From: Verrucomicrobiota bacterium
GTDB taxonomy: Bacteria; Verrucomicrobiota; Verrucomicrobiia; Verrucomicrobiales; V1-33
Direction of reading: 5' to 3'
NCBI GenBank assembly: GCA_040386695.1
Contig: JAZKFB010000004.1
Span: forward strand, 65,742-129,741
DNA: 64,000 bases
The notes beneath the pieces are model-generated. The model was given only the letters and a program-made list of their open reading frames with translations. It had not been told where the DNA came from and did not search any database. Every line of letters starts with the position of its first letter. Within the stretch, counting starts at the first letter, position 1. Both the position numbers and the translations under genes were made by a program. Below are positions 13,572-22,494 of this stretch, one piece after another.

Positions 13572-15857
13572 TCAGGGAATTCTTTTCACCCGGTAGAAGA
13601 CTCTGGAAGTGCCCGCGGGCAGCGTGGTGTCCGTGAAACCGGCGGTGGCCCCGGCGGCGGTGACATTGGGCGTCAGGTCGTCCCATCTGGAAAAATCAGC
13701 CGTGCGCTGGACGGTGTAAACCGCCCCGGCCGTGGAGGGCCATGCTAGGGTGACCTGCCCGGCGGCGGGGCCCCGGACCAGCGAGGAGATCTCAAAGCCG
13801 GCGGAGACGGGCGGCGTGCCCGCGCCGTTGATCATGATGCTTTGGATCTCGCTCCGGCTGAGGGCTTTTTTATAAATGGCGATGTCGTCCAGCTTGCCGT
13901 CAAAAGGAAAACCCAGACCGTTGTCGTCGCCCGCTCCGAGATGGAGATTCAGGGAATAATTCGGAGTGTACTGCGTGGGGGCCGACCGGGAGGTGTCCAC
14001 AGCCGCGCTCTCGCCGTTGACCCACAGCGTTTTGGTGTCCGTGGCGGCATCGTAGGTGATGGCCAGATGCGTCCAGGAGCCGACCACCACGGCCGGACCG
14101 CTGACATCATCCCAGTTCACCACCCCCTGCCCTGTCCAGAACGCCCAGCGCCCGCCATCGGCGTTGTAAAGAATATAACCGTTGGTCTCTCCGCCGCCGC
14201 CGTGGACGCGGCTGGTGACCGGCGAGGCATATCCGCTGGTGCCGTCGGCTTTGGCCCACAGCGTGACCGTGAAGCTGGTGGGATTCAGCAGCGCGTCGAA
14301 AGGCACCTCAATGTGCCCGCCTTCCGTGAAATCCGCGGCGGCGCCGGTCGCGGCATTGGCTCCCGCCTCGGTGAAACTCACCGCGCCCGGAGCCGTGACC
14401 ACGCCGTTGAACCCGTTGCCGCTGGCGTCATCGGCATTCGCGTCCAGCGGCCACCACGCGACCAGCGGCTTGGCCACCGGCACCTCCGCGTGCAGCACCA
14501 CCGTGATATTCGGCGTCAGCGGATCATCGGTGCTGACCAGCATCCGGCTGACAAAGGATCCGTCCTCCAGCAGCGGATCAAACACCACCTCCACCGTCCC
14601 GGTCGCGCCGGGAGCGAGGGTTTCCGGGAATTTGGTGACCGTGAAGGCCGCCATATCCGGACCGGCGGGCGTGACGGCACTGACATTCAGAGGCAGGGCC
14701 GCCCCGTCGTTGCGCAGGGTGAAAGATTTGGTCAGCGTGCTGGTGCCGGCCGGAAGCGTTCCGAACTCCAGCCGCTCCGTCAGGGACACGACGCTGGGAT
14801 CGTGAATGAACCCCGTGACCGTCACCGGCTTCACGGGATTCACCGCTGAATTGCTGGTCAGCTCCAGAATGGTCTCCACCGCTCCGGAAACCCCGGCGGG
14901 ATTGAACGAGATTCTGACCACGCCCGTGCCGCCCGCGGCAATGGGACCCGGCAGGCTGACCACGGAGAAACTGGCCGCATTGCCTCCGCTGAAAGCCGCC
15001 GCCGTGATATTCAGCGCTTTGGTGGCCCCGCCATTGTTCAGGGTGATGTCAAAGGTCTGGACGGCCCCGGTGAGCGTGAGCGGCCAGGGACTTGGCACCA
15101 GCAGATTCGGATCGGTGGAGGTGTCGGGCTTGATGCCGTTGGTCATGACCTCCTGCACCTGCGCCTCCGTCAGGGCATTGTCCCAGAATCCGATATCATC
15201 CATGCGGCCATCCCAGTAAAAGTCCCCGCCCAGATCCGAGCCCGAGCCGAAATGCATGGCCCGCAGCACATTGGCGGAGATGCCGATGACATCATTCAGA
15301 ACCACCACGCCATTGAGCAGCATTTTCCGCGTGGTCGTGTCCGCATCGTAGGTGATGGCCACATGCGTCCAGGCATTCACGGCCACGGGTCCGGCATCAC
15401 GGTTGTTCCACTGTCCCGACGAGCCATTATTGCCCGCCCAGAAGGTCCAGTTGCCGGCGGCGTCATTGTAAATCATGGGACCGTTGGAGGTCGTGCCGTT
15501 GTCCTCGCGGTTGGTGAATGGCGAGCGGTAGGCCCCGCCGCCCGCCGCTGTGGGGAACGCCCAGAAAGCCAGGCTGAAACTGCCGGACCCGTTCTCGGCC
15601 TGGGTGCCGGGATTCAGGTCCGGGGTATAGGGAATGTCGATGTGGCCCGGACCCGGGAAGTCGGCGGAGGAGCCCGTTTTGCCATTGGCTCCGGATTGTC
15701 CGAACGTCACCGTCCCCACCACCGTGCCGTTGTGGCCGTTGCCGGTGGCGTCCAGCGCATTGGCGTCCAGCGGCCAGTGGGCCACCAGTCCGGCGGAGGC
15801 TCCGACTATTGACATCACGGTAAACCAGCAGGAAAACACCAGGAATTTCATAGGCAT
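13572..15857 (-). CDS. secreted protein with two LamG-like domains, Ig-like middle repeats and a C-terminal FYRV module
   Basis: Signal peptide after the ATG at 15857/15851 (MKFLVFSCWFTVMSIVGASAG). There is a duplicated LamG signature (LVAHWPLDANALDATGNGHNG / LVAWWPLDANADDASGNGFNG; WTHVAITYDA / WTHLAITYDA). Start position is uncertain (15917, 15857 or 15851). Confidence 0.8.
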   Translation of the reverse strand: MPMKFLVFSCWFTVMSIVGASAGLVAHWPLDANALDATGNGHNGTVVGTVTFGQSGANGKTGSSADFPGPGHIDIPYTPDLNPGTQAENGSGSFSLAFWAFPTAAGGGAYRSPFTNREDNGTTSNGPMIYNDAAGNWTFWAGNNGSSGQWNNRDAGPVAVNAWTHVAITYDADTTTRKMLLNGVVVLNDVIGISANVLRAMHFGSGSDLGGDFYWDGRMDDIGFWDNALTEAQVQEVMTNGIKPDTSTDPNLLVPSPWPLTLTGAVQTFDITLNNGGATKALNITAAAFSGGNAASFSVVSLPGPIAAGGTGVVRISFNPAGVSGAVETILELTSNSAVNPVKPVTVTGFIHDPSVVSLTERLEFGTLPAGTSTLTKSFTLRNDGAALPLNVSAVTPAGPDMAAFTVTKFPETLAPGATGTVEVVFDPLLEDGSFVSRMLVSTDDPLTPNITVVLHAEVPVAKPLVAWWPLDANADDASGNGFNGVVTAPGAVSFTEAGANAATGAAADFTEGGHIEVPFDALLNPTSFTVTLWAKADGTSGYASPVTSRVHGGGGETNGYILYNADGGRWAFWTGQGVVNWDDVSGPAVVVGSWTHLAITYDAATDTKTLWVNGESAAVDTSRSAPTQYTPNYSLNLHLGAGDDNGLGFPFDGKLDDIAIYKKALSRSEIQSIMINGAGTPPVSAGFEISSLVRGPAAGQVTLAWPSTAGAVYTVQRTADFSRWDDLTPNVTAAGATAGFTDTTLPAGTSRVFYRVKRIP

Positions 15858-16008
15858 GAACGCGCCGCGTCCGGCATGGACGTTGGCGGGCGGCTCCAGC
15901 TTCGCCGCAGAAGCCATGCCTTTCGATTTTAAATCTCCGCAGACGCGTAGATTCCTGATCCTGAGCCTTTTGCGCAGAACGGCGGAGTCCTGTGATCCAC
16001 CGTGTTTG

Positions 16009-17340
16009 TCAGGAAACTTTGATGCGCTGAGCGACGGGAATATACCGGTTCAGCCAGGCCAGGAAAAAGAAAACCCGCAGCCGCCACCGCACCGCGAACG
16101 ACAGCCTGGTGCGTCCCGCCAGCACCGCGTTGATCGCGCAGACCATGCCGAAACGGTTATAGGGCTGGAAGAAGATCTGGGCGAAGTGGTTTTTGTAAAA
16201 GTTCCCGATGAATTCCCAATACTGGGAAATGCGCCGCCGGTTGTCCCTCTCATAACGCTTCATGCCGGAGGTCATGGACTGGCCGGAGGCGAGGGCCTCG
16301 TGCACGGCCTCCGCGCCCTGCTTGCCGCTGGTCATGGCCAGCATCACGCCGCTGGAGAAGACGGGATCGATGAACCCGGAGGCGTCGCCGATACGCACCA
16401 GACGGGGCGCCACCAGCTTTCCGTTGCGGTAGGAAAAATCCGTCAGCACCCGCAGCGGATCTTTGGCGGCGGCCTGGGTGAAGCGGTCGCCGACCACTTG
16501 GGTCGTGCGGACGGCGTCGTGAAAAATTTTGTCAGGATCCTTTCCCAACGCTTGGAATTCCCCCCGGTCCAGCACCAGACCCACACTCGTTTTGTTGGCC
16601 TCCAGGGGAATCATCCAGAACCAGGAGTTCTCGCGGCGCACCACCAGAATGTCCCCGTATTCCTCGCCCTGCGGCATGTCCACGTTTTCGAAATGGCCGA
16701 AGATGGCCATCTTTTTGTGTCCGGGATAAAACTCCCGCAGGGACGCCTGATTGGCCGTCAGATTCGACAGCCCGCTGGCGTCCATGAGAAAGCCGGCGGA
16801 AACCTCGTGCTCCATGCCGTCGGCGGCGCTCCGGTATTTCACGGTCACGCCGTCGGCGCTGATTTTGTGGGAGATCACCAGCGCCTCCTCCCGGACCCCG
16901 GCCCCGCATTCCCGCGAATGCTTCAGCAGGAGATCATCAAATTTCGACCGCTCCACCTGCACCGCCGTCGGGAATTCCGTGAACGAGCCGTCCGAAAAAT
17001 CCAGCCGCGTTTTCTGCGGGCCATTGCCCATGAGAAACTGGGCCCCGCGCTTCACCATGAACCCTGCGGATTCAATCTTCGGCCACACCCCGAGGCTGTC
17101 GAAAATCGCGCGGTTATACGGCAGCAGGGATTCCCCGATGTGAAAACGCGGGAACTTCTCCTTCTCCAGCACCAGCACCCGCCGCCCCGCTTTGGCCAGC
17201 GTGGTGGCCGCCGTGGAGCCGGCCGGGCCTCCTCCGATAATGACGACGTCCCAGGAGGTTTTTTCAGTGTTTTCGGAAGTCGGGGAAGGCATGGGGAGGC
17301 AGAAATTTATCAGGCTGGGCGGCTCGGAATGAGGCTCCAT
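16009..17340 (-). CDS. flavin-dependent halogenase-like FAD oxidoreductase, paralog 1
   Basis: Motifs: VVIIGGGPAGS, FPRFHIGESLLP, VKRG, WFWMIP (WxWxIP), GDASGFIDPVFSSGV. Hydrophobic C-terminal tail. An alternative ATG lies at 17292. Confidence 0.85.
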   Translation of the reverse strand: MEPHSEPPSLINFCLPMPSPTSENTEKTSWDVVIIGGGPAGSTAATTLAKAGRRVLVLEKEKFPRFHIGESLLPYNRAIFDSLGVWPKIESAGFMVKRGAQFLMGNGPQKTRLDFSDGSFTEFPTAVQVERSKFDDLLLKHSRECGAGVREEALVISHKISADGVTVKYRSAADGMEHEVSAGFLMDASGLSNLTANQASLREFYPGHKKMAIFGHFENVDMPQGEEYGDILVVRRENSWFWMIPLEANKTSVGLVLDRGEFQALGKDPDKIFHDAVRTTQVVGDRFTQAAAKDPLRVLTDFSYRNGKLVAPRLVRIGDASGFIDPVFSSGVMLAMTSGKQGAEAVHEALASGQSMTSGMKRYERDNRRRISQYWEFIGNFYKNHFAQIFFQPYNRFGMVCAINAVLAGRTRLSFAVRWRLRVFFFLAWLNRYIPVAQRIKVS

Positions 17341-17461
17341 CCTTAGTCATGGAAACTCTGTCCGCCAGTCAAAGCCTGGAGATTCCTGATACCAATTCGG
17401 CATCACTGCGATTTCAAAATATTATTTCCGATATCAGCGCGGCCGGCTTACAAGGTTGCAA

Positions 17462-18736
17462 ATGAACGACAACTCTTTCGACGTGATTGTGATCGGTGGC
17501 GGCCCCGCAGGCTCCAGTTCCTCGGCGATTCTGGGTGAGGCGGGGCACCGTGTGCTGCTCCTGGAGCGCGAAAAGTTCCCGCGCTACCACATTGGCGAGT
17601 CGCTGATCCCCTTCACCTACTTCCCGCTGGAGCGGCTGGGTCTGGTGAAGCGCATGCAGGAATCGAACTTCGTCAAAAAGTACAGCGTGTGTTTTGTCCC
17701 GCCCCATGGCCGGACCAGCCAGCCGTTCTATTTCTTCAACAGTTATGACAAGGACACGGTCGCCCAGACCTGGCAGGTGCTGCGCTCGGAGTTTGACGAG
17801 ATCCTTCTCAACAACGCCCGCGACAAAGGCGTGGAGGTTCATGAGCAGACCAAGGTAGACGAGCTGCTGCGCGATGACACCGGCCGCGTGATCGGCGTCC
17901 GCGCCCTGCATCACGATGGCACCGTGAAGGAATATCACGCCAAAATCACTCTCGACTGCACGGGCAAGGAGGCCTTCACCACCGTGCGCAACGGCTGGCG
18001 CGTCCGCGATCCCTATCTCAACAAAGTGGCGGTCTGGACTTATTATAAAGGCTCCCGCCGCGAGCCGGGCATCGACGAGGGACAGACCACGGTCGCCTTT
18101 GTAAAGGACAAGGGCTGGTTCTGGCACATTCCCCAGGCCAATGACATGGTCAGCGTCGGCGTGGTGGCGGAAGGCAAATATCTTTCCCGCGACGGCGTGC
18201 GGAGCCCGGAACTCATCTTCAAACGCGAGGTCGAGGAAAATCTCTGGGTCAAGGAATCCCTCTCCCACGGCGAGCAGACCGGACAGTATTACATCACCAG
18301 CGAATACACCCATCACGCCAAACACTGCGGCAGCGAGGGCCTGCTGCTGGTCGGTGATGCCTTCGCTTTCCTCGACCCCGTGTTCAGCAGCGGCCTCATG
18401 TTCGCCATGAAAAGCGGCGTCATGGCCGGCGAGGAGGTCAGCAAGGGCCTCAGGGAGGGCAATCTGAAACCCGGGCGTTTCGCCGAATACGGCCGCTTCC
18501 TGCGCGATGGCGTGGAGAACATGCGCAAGCTGGTTTACGCCTTCTACAATCCCGACTTCAGCTTCGGCAAACTCATCCGCAACCACCCCGACGCCCAGAC
18601 CTCCGTCACCGACTGCCTCAGCGGCGATGTGAACAAGGACTACTCCGTCCTCTGGGACCAGATCCGCGAGCTGGTCCCGCTGCCGGAGGAATTGCCCCTC
18701 GGCGAGCCGCTGGTCCGCGAGGAGGCGGCGGCATAG
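17462..18736 (+). CDS. flavin-dependent halogenase-like FAD oxidoreductase, paralog 2
   Basis: ATG at 17462 (the track start at 17456 is a TTG). Motifs: VIVIGGGPAGS, FPRYHIGESLIP, VKKY, WFWHIP, GDAFAFLDPVFSSGL. Confidence 0.85.
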   Translation: MNDNSFDVIVIGGGPAGSSSSAILGEAGHRVLLLEREKFPRYHIGESLIPFTYFPLERLGLVKRMQESNFVKKYSVCFVPPHGRTSQPFYFFNSYDKDTVAQTWQVLRSEFDEILLNNARDKGVEVHEQTKVDELLRDDTGRVIGVRALHHDGTVKEYHAKITLDCTGKEAFTTVRNGWRVRDPYLNKVAVWTYYKGSRREPGIDEGQTTVAFVKDKGWFWHIPQANDMVSVGVVAEGKYLSRDGVRSPELIFKREVEENLWVKESLSHGEQTGQYYITSEYTHHAKHCGSEGLLLVGDAFAFLDPVFSSGLMFAMKSGVMAGEEVSKGLREGNLKPGRFAEYGRFLRDGVENMRKLVYAFYNPDFSFGKLIRNHPDAQTSVTDCLSGDVNKDYSVLWDQIRELVPLPEELPLGEPLVREEAAA

Positions 18737-18752
18737 ACACCTATCACAGAAG

Positions 18753-18777
18753 CGGGAGCACAGGCGTCTCGCCTGTG
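18753..18777. repeat. left copy of a 25-bp inverted repeat (itself a hairpin)
   Basis: CGGGAGCACAGGCGTCTCGCCTGTG is the exact reverse complement of 19278..19302. It contains an internal 8-bp stem CACAGGCG/CGCCTGTG. Confidence 0.85.
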
Positions 18778-18825
18778 TGCTTGGGCTTGATCATTTTTCG
18801 TGGTTTGAGGCCTTCCTGAAAGAAT

Positions 18826-18904
18826 GGGCACCTCTAAAAACCCCGGAATTCGGCCAGATTTCCCCGCTGACCGGCGTCGGAAAAGGTGGTTTTTAGAGGT
18901 GCCC
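18826..18904. repeat. 17-bp perfect inverted repeat (long hairpin, 45-nt spacer)
   Basis: GGGCACCTCTAAAAACC (18826-18842) and GGTTTTTAGAGGTGCCC (18888-18904), read directly from the sequence. Confidence 0.8.
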
Positions 18905-18957
18905 GAATGAGGCACAGCTTGCATACAAAAACTTCCTTTTTCAAAAATCCGTGGTCC

Positions 18958-19206
18958 ATGTCCCTTCAAGTTTGCCCCCGATGCCAAAAGAAAGCGTTCA
19001 CATGGTCCGTGGACGAAGAGATGTCGAAGTTCACTATTTGGCATTGTGGCGATTGTGGCTACGAATCGTCTGAGGACGAAAAGCAGGAAATGACCTGCTG
19101 TCATTGCGGCCAGGAGCGCGGCAGTTTATTACTGAAAGATGACGAAGGATTTCACCGGTGGTGCTTTGGTTGCGGCCTGTTTGAACCCACGAGTGAGTCA
19201 CTTTGA
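18958..19206 (+). CDS. small double zinc-ribbon protein (four CxxC motifs)
   Basis: MSLQVCPRCQKK...HCGDCGYE...TCCHCGQE...WCFGCGLFEP gives two CxxC...CxxC pairs. ATG at 18958, with alternatives at 18907 or the track start 18886. The local DNA is lower in GC. Confidence 0.5.
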   Translation: MSLQVCPRCQKKAFTWSVDEEMSKFTIWHCGDCGYESSEDEKQEMTCCHCGQERGSLLLKDDEGFHRWCFGCGLFEPTSESL

Positions 19207-19277
19207 ACAGCATCAACAGAAAACGCCCGGGCAGCGGCGGCATCAGCATTCTTTTAAAATCCTCACACACAGCAACG

Positions 19278-19302
19278 CACAGGCGAGACGCCTGTGCTCC
19301 CG
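19278..19302. repeat. right copy of the 25-bp inverted repeat
   Basis: CACAGGCGAGACGCCTGTGCTCCCG is the reverse complement of 18753..18777. Confidence 0.85.
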
Positions 19303-19329
19303 TCTCAAGCCTATGACGTGTAATCTGAC

Positions 19330-20853
19330 ATGAAACGCGCCCCGATTCTCTATCTCATCATCCTCACTCTGGCTGTCGTTCCGATCGCCGCCATTCTGCA
19401 TTTCGGTCAGTCCCGGTCAGCTCCGGAAGCGCAACCCGCCGTCATTGCGGTCAGCCACGCCGCAGCCGCCCAGCCCGCGGCACCCGCAGCGGCAGCGGCA
19501 GCTCACGCGGCCAACGGCGTGTCAGCCGGGACCACAATGCCAGCGCCGGCGCCATCGGCGGTGGATTCCATGCTGGCCGCGCTCCGCGAGAATTTCCACA
19601 CGCCGCTCAGCTATCTGTTTCTACAGCTGGTGATCATCCTCACGGTTTCGCGGATGATGGGGAAAATCTTCACGCGCCTCGGCCAGCCGGCGGTGGTGGG
19701 GGAAATGGCGGCGGGCATTCTGCTGGGACCGTCGCTCTTCGGACTGCTGGCGCCGGACCTGTTTCAGTCCGTGTTTCCCCCCAGCTCCTTCGGCAATCTG
19801 AAACTGCTGAGCCAGGTGGGCGTGTGCTTTTTCATGTTCGCCGTGGGCATGGAGCTGAATGTGAACCACGTCCGCAGCAAAGCCCCCTTTGCGGTGGTTG
19901 TCAGCCACTCCGGCATTGGGATCTCCTATCTGCTGGGGGTGATTCTCGCCTGGTTTCTGTATCAGGACATGGCCGCGCCGGGCACGCGTTTCCTTCCCTT
20001 CGCGCTCTTCATGGGCATCTCCATGAGCATCACCGCCTTTCCGGTGCTGGCGCGCATCCTCCAGGACCGGGGCATGAGCCGCACCCGGCTGGGGAACACC
20101 GCCATCACCTGCGCGGCGGTGGATGATGTCACCGCCTGGAGCATCTTCGCCTTTGTCGTGGCCATGGCCCGGACCACGGGCATGGCCGGCTCCGCTCTGA
20201 ATCTGCTGCTGGTGGGCCTCCTGACCGCAGTGATGCTGCTGATGGTGAAACCCGGGCTGATCCGGTGGATCGGACCGCGTCAGCTTCAGAACGAGACTCC
20301 GTCAAAGGACACCATCGCGCTGGTCATCTGCATCGTCGTGTCGGCGGCGTTCTGCACCGAACTGATCGGCATCCACGCCCTCTTCGGCGCCTTTCTGGCC
20401 GGAGCCATCATGCCGGACACCCAGGGCTTCCGCCACAAGCTGGCGGTGCGCATTGAAAATTTCTGCTCCATCCTGCTTCTGCCGCTTTTCTTCGCCTTCA
20501 CCGGCCTGAGGACCCAGATCGGCCTGCTGGGCGACTGGCAGGGCTGGCTGCTGTGCCTCGGCATCATCGCCGTGGCCACCCTGGGGAAACTCGGCGGCAG
20601 CGCCGTGACCGCGCGGCTCACAGGCATGAGCTGGAGGGATTCCCTGCAGCTCGGCGCGCTCATGAACACCCGCGGTTTAATGGAACTGATTGCCTTGAAT
20701 ATTGGCTACGATCTGGGCATTCTCCCGCCGCGCATCTTCACCATGCTCGTGATCATGGCTTTGGCCACGACCATGCTGACCGGTCCGCTGCTCACCCTGT
20801 TTGGCTCCCGCCAGCCCGTCCCCGACGGCTTGCCGGAACCCGCGCCGCGCTGA
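19330..20853 (+). CDS. CPA2-family cation:proton antiporter (Kef/NapA-like)
   Basis: 507 aa and polytopic. The segment LQLVIILTVSRMMGKIFTRLGQPAVVGEMAAGILLGPS and the overall TM pattern are typical of the Na_H_Exchanger/CPA2 family. Confidence 0.9.
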   Translation: MKRAPILYLIILTLAVVPIAAILHFGQSRSAPEAQPAVIAVSHAAAAQPAAPAAAAAAHAANGVSAGTTMPAPAPSAVDSMLAALRENFHTPLSYLFLQLVIILTVSRMMGKIFTRLGQPAVVGEMAAGILLGPSLFGLLAPDLFQSVFPPSSFGNLKLLSQVGVCFFMFAVGMELNVNHVRSKAPFAVVVSHSGIGISYLLGVILAWFLYQDMAAPGTRFLPFALFMGISMSITAFPVLARILQDRGMSRTRLGNTAITCAAVDDVTAWSIFAFVVAMARTTGMAGSALNLLLVGLLTAVMLLMVKPGLIRWIGPRQLQNETPSKDTIALVICIVVSAAFCTELIGIHALFGAFLAGAIMPDTQGFRHKLAVRIENFCSILLLPLFFAFTGLRTQIGLLGDWQGWLLCLGIIAVATLGKLGGSAVTARLTGMSWRDSLQLGALMNTRGLMELIALNIGYDLGILPPRIFTMLVIMALATTMLTGPLLTLFGSRQPVPDGLPEPAPR

Positions 20854-20931
20854 GTTCCTCCTCTCCTTCCTCCATTTCTCTGATTCCTCGAAACTCACGT
20901 CTTCTCCTCCCCGCTTTTCGTTTTCCCAGCT

Positions 20932-22494
20932 ATGAACAATGAGGCTCCCGGCGGCAGCGCCAGTTATGATGTCGTGGTCATCGGCGGCGCGCTTTCCGGT
21001 GCCGCCACCGCCACCCTGCTGCTGCGCCACAATCCGGGAATCCGCGTGCTCATTGTCGAAAAATCCGCCACCCTCGGCCGGCGGGTTGGCGAGGCCACAG
21101 TGGAGATCAGCGGCTACTTCATGAGCCGCGTGCTGGGCATGACCCAGTATCTCAACGAGAACCATCTTGTGAAGCAGGGCCTGCGGTTCTGGTTCAAAAA
21201 CGAGGAGGTCACCAACGTCTCCGAAGCCAGCGAACTGGGCGCGAAATACCTCTCCCGCATTCCCTCCTACCAGCTCGACCGCGCCACCTTCGACGAGGAG
21301 GTCCTCCGCCGCGCCGTCGCCGCCGGAGCCGAGCTGATCCGCCCCGCCACCGTCTCCAATGTGGAGCTGAACGACGGCGGCCCGCAGTCGATGGAGATCA
21401 AACACGGCGACAGCACCCGGAAAATCACCACGCGCTGGATCGTCGACGCCTCGGGGCTCGCCGCCGTGCTGGCCCGCAAAAACGGCTGGTGGAAATCCAA
21501 CACCGAGCACCCCACGGCCGCCGCCTGGTCGCGCTGGAAAGGCGTCAAGGACTGGGACAGCCGCGAGCTGGCGGTGAAATATCCCGCCTGGTCCCGCGCC
21601 GTTTACGGCATCCGCAACACCGCCACGAATCACATCATCGGCGACGGCTGGTGGAGCTGGTGGATTCCTCTCAAAGGCGGCGATGTCAGCGTCGGATTCG
21701 TCATCGACCAGCGCATCGCCAGCTTCACCGAGGAGGGCGGCAAGCTCGGCGACCGCATCAAAGCTTTCCTCATGAAACACCCCGTCGCCCGCGAAATGCT
21801 GGCCGACGCCACCTTCTGCGAGGAGGACATGCACTGGCGGAAAAATCTGGCCTACTACAGCACCACCTTCGCCGGCGACGGTTTTGTGCTCGTGGGCGAC
21901 GCCGCCGCGTTCATGGATCCCTTTTACAGCCCCGGCATGGACTGGATCTCCTTCACCACCAGCAGCGCCGCCAATCTCATCACCCAGCAGCGCAAAGGCA
22001 AACCCATGGCCGGACGGGTCGTGGATTATAACCGCGATTTCCGCGTCAGTCACCGCCGCTGGTTCGAGTCCCTCTACAAGGACAAATACGAATACATGGG
22101 CGAATTCGACCTCATGAGCCTCGCCTTCCGCCTCGATCTCGGGCTGTATTACTGGGGCGTGGTCGAAGTGCCGTTCAATGAGGGCGAGGAGGCGCTTTTC
22201 GCCCCGCCCTTCTCCCCGCCCAGCGGCCGCCTTTTCGCGGCGCTCATGAGCACCTACAACCGCCGCTTCGCCAAAATCGCCCGCCGCCGCCGCCGCACCG
22301 GCACCCTCGGCCGCGCGAACGCCGGCAAGCGCCGCCTCATCCCCGGCTTCATGCTCAAGCGCAGCAATATGCTCACCCTCTTCCCCATGCTCGCCGAATG
22401 GGCCTGGCTGGAAATCCGGGAAGGCTGGCGCAGCTGGCTCGACGATTCCTCCCCCTACCCGGCTCCGGCCCCCCAGGCGAAAGCCAGCGCCTGA
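20932..22494 (+). CDS. flavin-dependent halogenase-like FAD oxidoreductase, paralog 3 (divergent)
   Basis: Motifs: VVVIGGALSGA (variant dinucleotide motif), RRVGEATVE, VKQG, WSWWIP, GDAAAFMDPFYSPGM. Has a long C-terminal extension with a basic and amphipathic tail. Confidence 0.8.
   Translation: MNNEAPGGSASYDVVVIGGALSGAATATLLLRHNPGIRVLIVEKSATLGRRVGEATVEISGYFMSRVLGMTQYLNENHLVKQGLRFWFKNEEVTNVSEASELGAKYLSRIPSYQLDRATFDEEVLRRAVAAGAELIRPATVSNVELNDGGPQSMEIKHGDSTRKITTRWIVDASGLAAVLARKNGWWKSNTEHPTAAAWSRWKGVKDWDSRELAVKYPAWSRAVYGIRNTATNHIIGDGWWSWWIPLKGGDVSVGFVIDQRIASFTEEGGKLGDRIKAFLMKHPVAREMLADATFCEEDMHWRKNLAYYSTTFAGDGFVLVGDAAAFMDPFYSPGMDWISFTTSSAANLITQQRKGKPMAGRVVDYNRDFRVSHRRWFESLYKDKYEYMGEFDLMSLAFRLDLGLYYWGVVEVPFNEGEEALFAPPFSPPSGRLFAALMSTYNRRFAKIARRRRRTGTLGRANAGKRRLIPGFMLKRSNMLTLFPMLAEWAWLEIREGWRSWLDDSSPYPAPAPQAKASA

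Follow-up and report, generated by a model that had tools for sequence, protein, structure and literature searches.

How did a small gene of a nameless family come to lie, bracketed by two inverted copies of one hairpin, inside a cluster of halogenase-like and antiporter genes? The cluster is found in a Verrucomicrobiota bacterium (contig JAZKFB010000004.1), within a stretch of 64,000 nt that is called the window here and that all window counts below cover. Between the second of its halogenase-like genes and the gene of a CPA2 antiporter are 593 nt (18737-19329, no strand assigned) holding a perfect 25-nt inverted repeat, a 79-nt hairpin and the gene of an 82-aa zinc-ribbon protein. We find that this spacer is an insertion of foreign base composition and that the arms of its inverted repeat are repetitive extragenic palindromes (REPs) of a family that accompanies tyrosine transposases associated with REPs (RAYTs) in other genomes. 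Tentatively, and with a confidence that stops a little short of even, we read the REP-cargo-REP segment as a horizontally acquired passenger cassette, which arrived as a unit and resembles a RAYT gene between its REPs, with other cargo in the place of the transposase. The locus is best seen as a small insertion, unusual to a modest degree, and not as a regulatory device.

The segment is an insertion into a tight operon

The upstream flank is a plus-strand gene for a tryptophan-halogenase-like protein dependent on flavin adenine dinucleotide (FAD) (halogenase-like gene 2, 17456-18736; Pfam Trp_halogenase, E 1.6e-27). The downstream flank, on the same strand, is the CPA2 gene (19330-20853; Pfam Na_H_Exchanger), whose product is 100% identical to a protein of a Verrucomicrobiota metagenome-assembled genome (MAG) at NCBI, and halogenase-like gene 3 (20932-22494, by Pfam search) lies beyond the antiporter. 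Three orthologous loci (L121, L122 and L123) were found via antiporter homologues of 68-72% identity. From the halogenase stop to the antiporter start they measure 12, 8 and 8 nt, respectively, versus 593 nt in the window, and in a DNA alignment all three are gapped cleanly over the window's extra segment. These spacers of 8-12 nt are the empty sites that the original prediction, made from the letters of the window, had proposed to look for.

Its impression of an AT-rich segment is borne out as well: G+C content (GC) across 18800-19399 is 0.48-0.54, against about 0.60-0.65 in the flanks. For the insert as a whole GC is 0.518 versus 0.629 for the window, and GC at third codon positions (GC3) is 0.566 in the zinc-ribbon open reading frame (ORF) versus 0.75-0.86 in five neighbouring genes. 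What was inserted, 593 nt of foreign base composition, split an operon that had been tight in the ancestor (halogenase-like 2, CPA2, halogenase-like 3). Given the empty ortholog sites together with the foreign composition, the difference points to horizontal gain and not to loss in relatives.

The closest relative (L124, antiporter 78% identical) carries another insert at the same halogenase/antiporter junction. It is about 575 nt long (47-623), lacks REP hairpins and holds a 134-aa ORF (216-620) for which Pfam, PHROG, PADLOC and NCBIfam gave no match. The junction looks like a recurrent insertion site. Copies of the window's insert were detected neither in the rest of the window nor in the fetched loci, and the DNA of the whole cassette had no match among plasmids.

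The arms of the inverted repeat are REP elements

A repeat search recovers the predicted perfect 25-nt inverted repeat, with arms at 18753-18777 and 19278-19302 and 500 nt between them. Within each arm is a hairpin, CACAGGCG-TCT-CGCCTGTG; the 8-bp stem ascribed to both copies holds for the left one, whereas the right one pairs over 9 bp. This motif has two sites only in the 64 kb, where 0.01 would be expected by chance. The left copy (plus strand; -19.1 kcal/mol) consists of a GGAG head (18755-18758), a stem (18759-18766 and 18770-18777) and the TCT loop (18767-18769), and begins 17 nt past the halogenase stop codon. The right copy is inverted, with its head outward on the minus strand (GGAG at 19297-19300; -17.0 kcal/mol); it begins 72 nt past the zinc-ribbon stop and ends 27 nt before the ATG of the CPA2 gene. 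Both arms are short, G+C-rich, extragenic stem-loops with a head tetranucleotide directly 5' of the stem, as in REPs, which measure 20-40 nt and are present in many copies in their host genomes.

The 20-mer GCACAGGCGTCTCGCCTGTG of the arms is found exactly in at least 120 stretches of species-representative genomes (L001-L120) from at least 10 phyla, so the repeats are not unique to the locus. Among the matches listed, the hosts are Phycisphaerae and other Planctomycetota, Desulfobaccales, Syntrophobacterales, filamentous cyanobacteria and Verrucomicrobiota (including Akkermansia), as well as Acidobacteriota, Chloroflexi, Sumerlaeota, Hydrogenedentota and Armatimonadota. The 20-mer is also present in 28 IMG/VR stretches (L142-L169), and some genomes hold the same REP in multiple copies, as in the 6 loci of one Planctomycetaceae MAG. 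Aligned on the match, the conserved unit has a head of GTGG, GTAG, GGAG or GGGG directly 5' of the stem. Counted over 241 headed hairpins from the fetched loci and the window, GTGG heads 131, GTAG 79, GGGG 17 and GGAG 14, the GGAG/GGGG head being the variant seen in Verrucomicrobiota and Sumerlaeota. Copies are often paired as inverted doublets with their heads outward, separated in most cases by 10-30 nt and occasionally by as much as about 50 nt; the partner copies have other stems that are still self-complementary (CACGGGCG, CACCGCCG and others).

The family of the arms matches the published definition of GT(A/G)G-headed REPs, which have been reported from the Planctomycetes-Verrucomicrobia-Chlamydiae (PVC) superphylum, cyanobacteria and Chloroflexi (PMC3733652; PMC2817692), with GTGG heads in the verrucomicrobium Opitutus terrae (PMC3733652). 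Head variation at positions 2 and 3 is published, GGAG not being among the listed heads (PMC3733652), and a literature search found no occurrence of the REP sequence string. As a rule, such REPs follow the upstream ORF of a unidirectional gene pair, no more than 20 bp from its 3' end, and occasionally they are intragenic (PMC3733652). The 25-nt arms are therefore two copies of a G[T/G][A/G]G-headed, RAYT-associated REP family and not private repeats.

Intragenic copies occur in this family too. An ORF of 1468 aa that resembles a polyketide synthase contains two REP copies (L050:1857-1879 and 2602-2624), read through as ...GTGVSPV..., and other loci have several mechanical ORFs with the same GTGVSPV peptide signature. 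This agrees with the intragenic copies reported for O. terrae.

The REP family is tied to RAYT genes in other genomes

The fetched loci confirm the association with RAYTs, the REPs flanking the gene in two genomes. In a Sumerlaeota genome (L016) a 244-aa ORF that matches Pfam Y1_Tnp with 38.9 bits (cutoff 23) lies between two GGAG-headed REP doublets. In a Verrucomicrobiales genome (L065) a RAYT homologue, 50% identical, lies between single, inverted, heads-outward REPs; they are 608 nt apart, and the layout is that of the window, where 500 nt separate the REPs. A third RAYT homologue is found near REPs in L079. The REP family is thus tied to RAYT genes in other genomes. The RAYTs beside this REP are only 41-50% identical between phyla while the REP 20-mer is base-identical; conservation of the hairpin greatly exceeds that of its presumed transposase.

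The insert of the window has no Pfam Y1_Tnp match, and so lacks the Y1/HUH transposase between hairpins that defines a RAYT-REP unit. A degenerate RAYT inside the cassette was considered and rejected: tblastn with the RAYTs of L016 and L065 gave only a chance-level match of 21 bits, and DNA alignment stayed at the level of shuffled sequence.

The cargo is a gene of an uncurated zinc-ribbon family

Between the REPs, the plus-strand ORF 18958-19206 encodes the acidic 82-aa protein with four CxxC motifs, arranged as two CxxC...CxxC zinc ribbons, much as the original prediction had it. A word-indexed protein search found no homologue, and a related-locus search with the single protein returned one weak metagenome locus and no viral one. 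An exhaustive HMMER search of 1.84 billion cluster representatives yielded 139 homologue representatives at E<=1e-3, 50 of them at E<=1e-10. Nearly all members have 75-87 aa and align end to end. They share an N-terminal MxLQxCPxC from the ATG at 18958, and residues C6, P7, W16, C33, E39, C47 and C50 are invariant, the other cysteines being conserved in at least 90%. AlphaFold2, given the family alignment, returns a confident all-beta model of two ribbons with a predicted local distance difference test score (pLDDT) of 89.6. The isoelectric point (pI) is 4.76 for the window protein and below 6 in 35 of 44 members.

The structure and profile searches that had been suggested for the protein place it in no curated family. 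The best Pfam score is 18.8 bits against a cut-off of 27 and the best NCBIfam score 24 against 109; the curated zinc-ribbon families compared were Zn_ribbon_16 and Zn_ribbon_IS1595 of Pfam and ECs_2282_CxxC, Lar and Elf1 of NCBIfam. PHROG and PADLOC matches all have E>=1e-4, and phages gave no match. PDB, searched by sequence and by fold, and BFVD gave no significant match, the best being single ribbons of the Rpb9, TFS, Lar or rubredoxin type; profiles of the rubredoxin and rubrerythrin knuckles match marginally (E 0.008-0.02). Judged by homologues, predicted fold and GC3, the ORF is a real gene of an uncurated, mostly acidic family of about 80 aa with two putative zinc ribbons.

Where else is the gene found? 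The closest homologue (P0122, 54% identity) lies on a contig of 604 nt (L126). Another (P0130, 51%), on two near-identical contigs (L127 and L128), is a cassette in an integron-type array (L127:392-7911). The 11-12 attC-like sites of this array, each about 110 nt long, contain CATAAC...GTTATG boxes and an extrahelical base and show 9 covarying pairs. In L129 a homologue stands within a run of small ORFs, none with a Pfam match. On two Hymenobacter plasmids, NZ_CP007144.1 (L132:4001-4225) and NZ_CP040937.1 (L138:4001-4225), it begins 15 nt after an isonitrile synthase gene and is followed by genes for a TauD dioxygenase and a FAD oxidoreductase. In Chitinophaga it follows a 310-aa gene without a Pfam match, and on 14 contigs it lies between an OstA/LptD-like gene and an aminotransferase gene. 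Given that these contexts share nothing and that none of the copies examined has comparable bracketing repeats, the zinc-ribbon gene is promiscuous, tied neither to halogenases nor to antiporters nor to REPs.

Three observations on these loci stand on their own. The L127 array consists of small same-strand ORFs without Pfam matches; YebC-like, DUF2924 and resolvase genes break it up, and its contig has no integrase. The Hymenobacter homologue is unannotated in the PLSDB gene table, which is incomplete, and may be a missed small gene in a putative biosynthetic cluster. Upstream of P0122 (L126:40-130) are repeat-like hairpins, one of them GTAG-headed (GTAG-GAGCG...CGCTC), of a family that differs from the REP of the window.

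Did the REPs and the gene arrive together?

One argument for a single arrival is placement. The only two REP copies of the window occupy both gaps around its one compositionally foreign gene, among some 33 intergenic gaps of at least 40 nt; by our own arithmetic, two randomly placed REPs would fall in adjacent gaps in about 6% of cases and around this foreign gene in about 0.2%. In Pseudomonas, REPs mark old, stable DNA, and acquired, compositionally atypical DNA forms REP deserts (PMC3390384). Since REPs usually avoid acquired DNA, and given these placement odds, the association of REPs with a foreign gene is unlikely to be incidental. On the reading we prefer as the most economical, the REP-cargo-REP segment would have entered the short halogenase-CPA2 spacer in one event, as an oversized, non-autonomous element akin to a REP doublet forming hairpins (REPIN). 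A RAYT-type enzyme might have moved it in trans, with the single-stranded hairpins as its substrate, or recombination at REPs might have done so. The zinc-ribbon protein would be stand-alone passenger cargo, probably with a protein- or metal-binding role, and not a regulator of its neighbours.

Several points weigh against this reading. A RAYT gene was not found in the 64-kb window, and neither there nor in the fetched loci did we see a second REP-cargo-REP copy; likewise, comparable inverted repeats were not found around other homologues of the gene (L126, L129, L132, L133, L134). Genomes rich in REPs have inverted REP pairs around ordinary genes as well (ClpS in L069 is one), so that the layout alone is not diagnostic. 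Counted from the gene boundaries, the REPs are 16 and 27 nt further in, which exceeds the ancestral spacer of 8-12 nt, and given this surplus of flanking DNA they may not be the exact ends of what was inserted. Just outside both arms, a direct repeat matching in 7 of 8 positions (CCTATCAC at 18740-18747 and CCTATGAC at 19310-19317, plus strand, read from the sequence, at distances of 5 nt from the left REP and 7 nt from the right one) is possibly a target duplication, possibly chance. We know of no system in which a RAYT was shown to move a REP-bounded unit of 0.5 kb, and a literature search for REPIN or RAYT "cargo" gave nothing relevant. The RNA-level roles of the hairpins, for their part, would be carried over from other organisms.

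What, then, of the other ways to arrive at the same arrangement? The REPs and the foreign gene may have come separately, the gene by illegitimate recombination or by capture of an integron cassette at a secondary site; it might have landed inside a resident REP doublet, or REPs might later have colonised both new spacers. Such a two-step origin we hold to be rather unlikely, if still the main competitor. It accommodates the left REP, whose position 17 nt past a stop codon falls within the typical 20 bp (PMC3733652), and this family commonly occurs as doublets with heads outward and spacers of 10-30 nt, rarely up to about 50. Since Verrucomicrobiota and Sumerlaeota are where the GGAG/GGGG head is seen, the REPs could be native and the cargo (GC3 0.57) foreign. 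One member of the zinc-ribbon family is an integron-type cassette, the other insert in L124 indicates that the site tolerates insertions, and REP pairs occur around ordinary genes elsewhere. Against it, two or three independent events would be needed at one spot in 64 kb with no other REP, the situation to which the estimates of about 6% and 0.2% apply; over their 25 nt the two REP copies show no difference; DNA of recent acquisition is usually avoided by REPs (PMC3390384); and the insert has no attC site or remnant, there being no R''/R' boxes downstream of the ORF. An integron cassette in the window was sought in its own right, the criterion being a site of the form R''-L''...L'-R' ending in GTTRRRY downstream of the ORF, and rejected: no R boxes or attC-like palindrome were seen in 19207-19329, by eye and by fold alignment, with no dedicated attC model.

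A conventional element related to miniature inverted-repeat transposable elements (MITEs) or derived from an insertion sequence, moved by a DDE transposase, would make the 25-bp repeats terminal or subterminal inverted repeats and CCTATCAC/CCTATGAC an 8-bp target-site duplication. The perfect 25-bp inverted repeat, the 7/8 direct repeat just outside the arms and the empty sites in relatives all speak for it. We nevertheless consider it very improbable, as the direct repeat does not abut the arms, the intervening bases match in only 2 of 5 positions, and chance would, by a rough estimate of our own, produce it with p of about 0.1. The arms, moreover, are bona fide REP hairpins of a family associated with Y1 transposases, and Y1 (IS200/IS605-type) transposases leave no target duplications; the element carries a gene, and no copies of it were detected elsewhere in the window or the fetched loci. 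Of the MITE-like or other small mobile cassette first proposed, the mobile part stands in outline, given the empty sites, the foreign GC and arms from a repeated, transposase-associated family, and the MITE part, in the usual sense of the term, finds no support, given the gene, the REP arms and the lack of an abutting duplication. Less probable still, if only slightly, is that the gene is a functional add-on, the zinc-ribbon protein acting through the hairpins as a regulator of the antiporter and halogenase genes, or serving FAD enzymes as a rubredoxin-like metal or redox partner. The gene does sit in a cluster of FAD-dependent enzymes, its Hymenobacter plasmid homologues are near isonitrile synthase, TauD and FAD oxidoreductase genes, and the rubredoxin/rubrerythrin knuckle matches, marginal as they are, point the same way. 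It is, however, absent from the orthologous clusters, its homologues have no conserved partner in their neighbourhoods, and family, fold and PDB matches are all below threshold. An acidic protein of pI 4.76 is unlike a DNA-binding regulator, and hairpins that belong to a genome-wide repeat family are not private operators. For the structured regulatory unit that had been offered as the other possibility there is thus no support, and none of the other family members examined is bracketed by such repeats.

The preferred reading, that the REP-cargo-REP segment arrived as one passenger cassette, has a stronger form, in which REP/RAYT systems can carry passenger genes and the locus is the first recognised "REP-bounded gene cassette", with coding cargo moved by a RAYT in trans; this we regard as doubtful. 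The usual description of REPs and their RAYT is that of a closed system, inherited vertically, which copies only short, non-coding hairpin doublets. If REP-bounded units move whole, small genes would have in REP/RAYT a route of insertion that has gone unrecognised so far, and if the gene is a true passenger, a supposedly domesticated transposase family would be shuttling small genes, of the integron-cassette pool, into operons. If instead the two-step origin is correct, what we have here is an ordinary case of gene gain beside REPs. Either way, a nameless, widespread family of two-zinc-ribbon proteins of about 80 aa is put on the map, one REP sequence proves to be base-conserved across at least 10 phyla, and the locus offers a natural test case for the effects of REP hairpins on downstream operon genes.

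Comparison with known systems

The nearest relatives in layout are RAYT genes with inverted REPs, or "REPtrons" (Nunvar 2010, PMC2817692; Di Nocera 2013, PMC3733652). They share with the window two inverted, outward G[T/G][A/G]G-headed hairpins around roughly 0.5-0.6 kb with one ORF, and in L016 and L065 this very REP sequence has real RAYT genes between its copies. Unlike them, the window has a zinc-ribbon ORF with neither a Y1 transposase nor a RAYT remnant, a GGAG head in place of GTAG or GTGG, and the extra 79-nt hairpin. REPINs (Bertels and Rainey 2011, PMC3116915, PMC3337134) and bacterial interspersed mosaic elements (BIMEs) are, like the insert, non-autonomous inverted pairs of identical REPs between unidirectional genes. 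The window spacer, however, is 500 nt long and coding, with a separate 79-nt hairpin, versus about 10-100 nt of non-coding DNA, which sets it outside the definition of a REPIN; only one unit is present in 64 kb, whereas REPINs are usually abundant.

MITEs are similarly small, without transposase, bounded by inverted repeats and missing from orthologous sites. The window element differs from them in that it carries a conserved gene, MITEs being non-coding, that its arms are REP hairpins and that no target-site duplication abuts these, the sole candidate being the 7/8 repeat, 5 and 7 nt away. Integron gene cassettes resemble it as single, small, promoterless ORFs between genes, and the homologue P0130 (51%) lies in an attC-like array; the window insert, in contrast, is bounded by REPs, with no integrase or array present. 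Among protein families, Rpb9, TFS, RPA12 and the Lar- or rubredoxin-type CxxC knuckles share two CxxC...CxxC ribbons, an all-beta fold and a size of about 80 aa, and are the best non-significant matches. There is no significant match in sequence or structure and every curated cut-off is missed, so we do not claim membership.

The inner hairpin and probable read-through of the insert

Inside the cassette, the repeat search also confirms the second, perfect 17-nt inverted repeat that had been reported (18826-18842 and 18888-18904, 45-nt spacer). The 17-mer forms a single pair in the window, versus 0.12 expected. As a plus-strand hairpin of 79 nt (18826-18904) with a 17-bp stem and a structured 45-nt loop, it folds at -44.1 kcal/mol (z -5.6). 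Its supposed overlap with the 5' end of the ORF concerns only a mechanical, GTG-extended frame from 18886; with the ATG at 18958 as the start shared by all homologues, 53 nt remain between the end of the hairpin and the zinc-ribbon gene downstream. Rfam at E<=1 gave no relevant match over 18000-20000 and none for L140 and L141, and no copy of the hairpin was found among the fetched loci. Viral contigs gave three exact matches to the 17-nt arm, about the number expected by chance, and a gapped search returned one locus and no family. In two viral contigs (L140:3061-3104 and L141:7858-7911) the exact 17-mer is followed by its own partial complement (14/17 and 10 nt, respectively), in contexts otherwise unrelated, which may be coincidence or a rare hairpin type. 

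No sigma-70-like promoter was found in 18400-19600, where two terminator-like matches occur at chance rate. Given that there is no promoter-like site and that only 27 nt separate the right REP from the ATG, the antiporter gene and the halogenase-like gene downstream of it would have to be transcribed from across the insert. For the region 18737-18960 the folding energy is -81.7 kcal/mol (z -3.35). The insert would be transcribed through from the operon promoter, and the transcript would then carry three strong stem-loops without U-tracts, namely the left REP, the 79-nt hairpin and the right REP. By analogy with REPs elsewhere, these may be expected to punctuate the transcript or to stabilise segments of it; REPs in other organisms are credited with mRNA stabilisation and partial termination (PMC3733652).

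Neighbouring genes and other frames

Three genes for halogenase-like FAD enzymes, with that of the CPA2 antiporter wedged between numbers 2 and 3, recur in this order across Verrucomicrobiota loci (L122:3260-9074; window 16009-22494). A minus-strand ORF of 154 aa (18640-19104) was judged spurious, as it has no Pfam match and overlaps the left REP and the 3' end of the halogenase gene. Divergent from halogenase-like gene 2 lies a further halogenase-like paralogue on the minus strand (16009-17340; Trp_halogenase, E 9e-35). It is the real gene in that region, where a plus-strand ORF of 570 aa (15634-17346) is a shadow frame without a family match.

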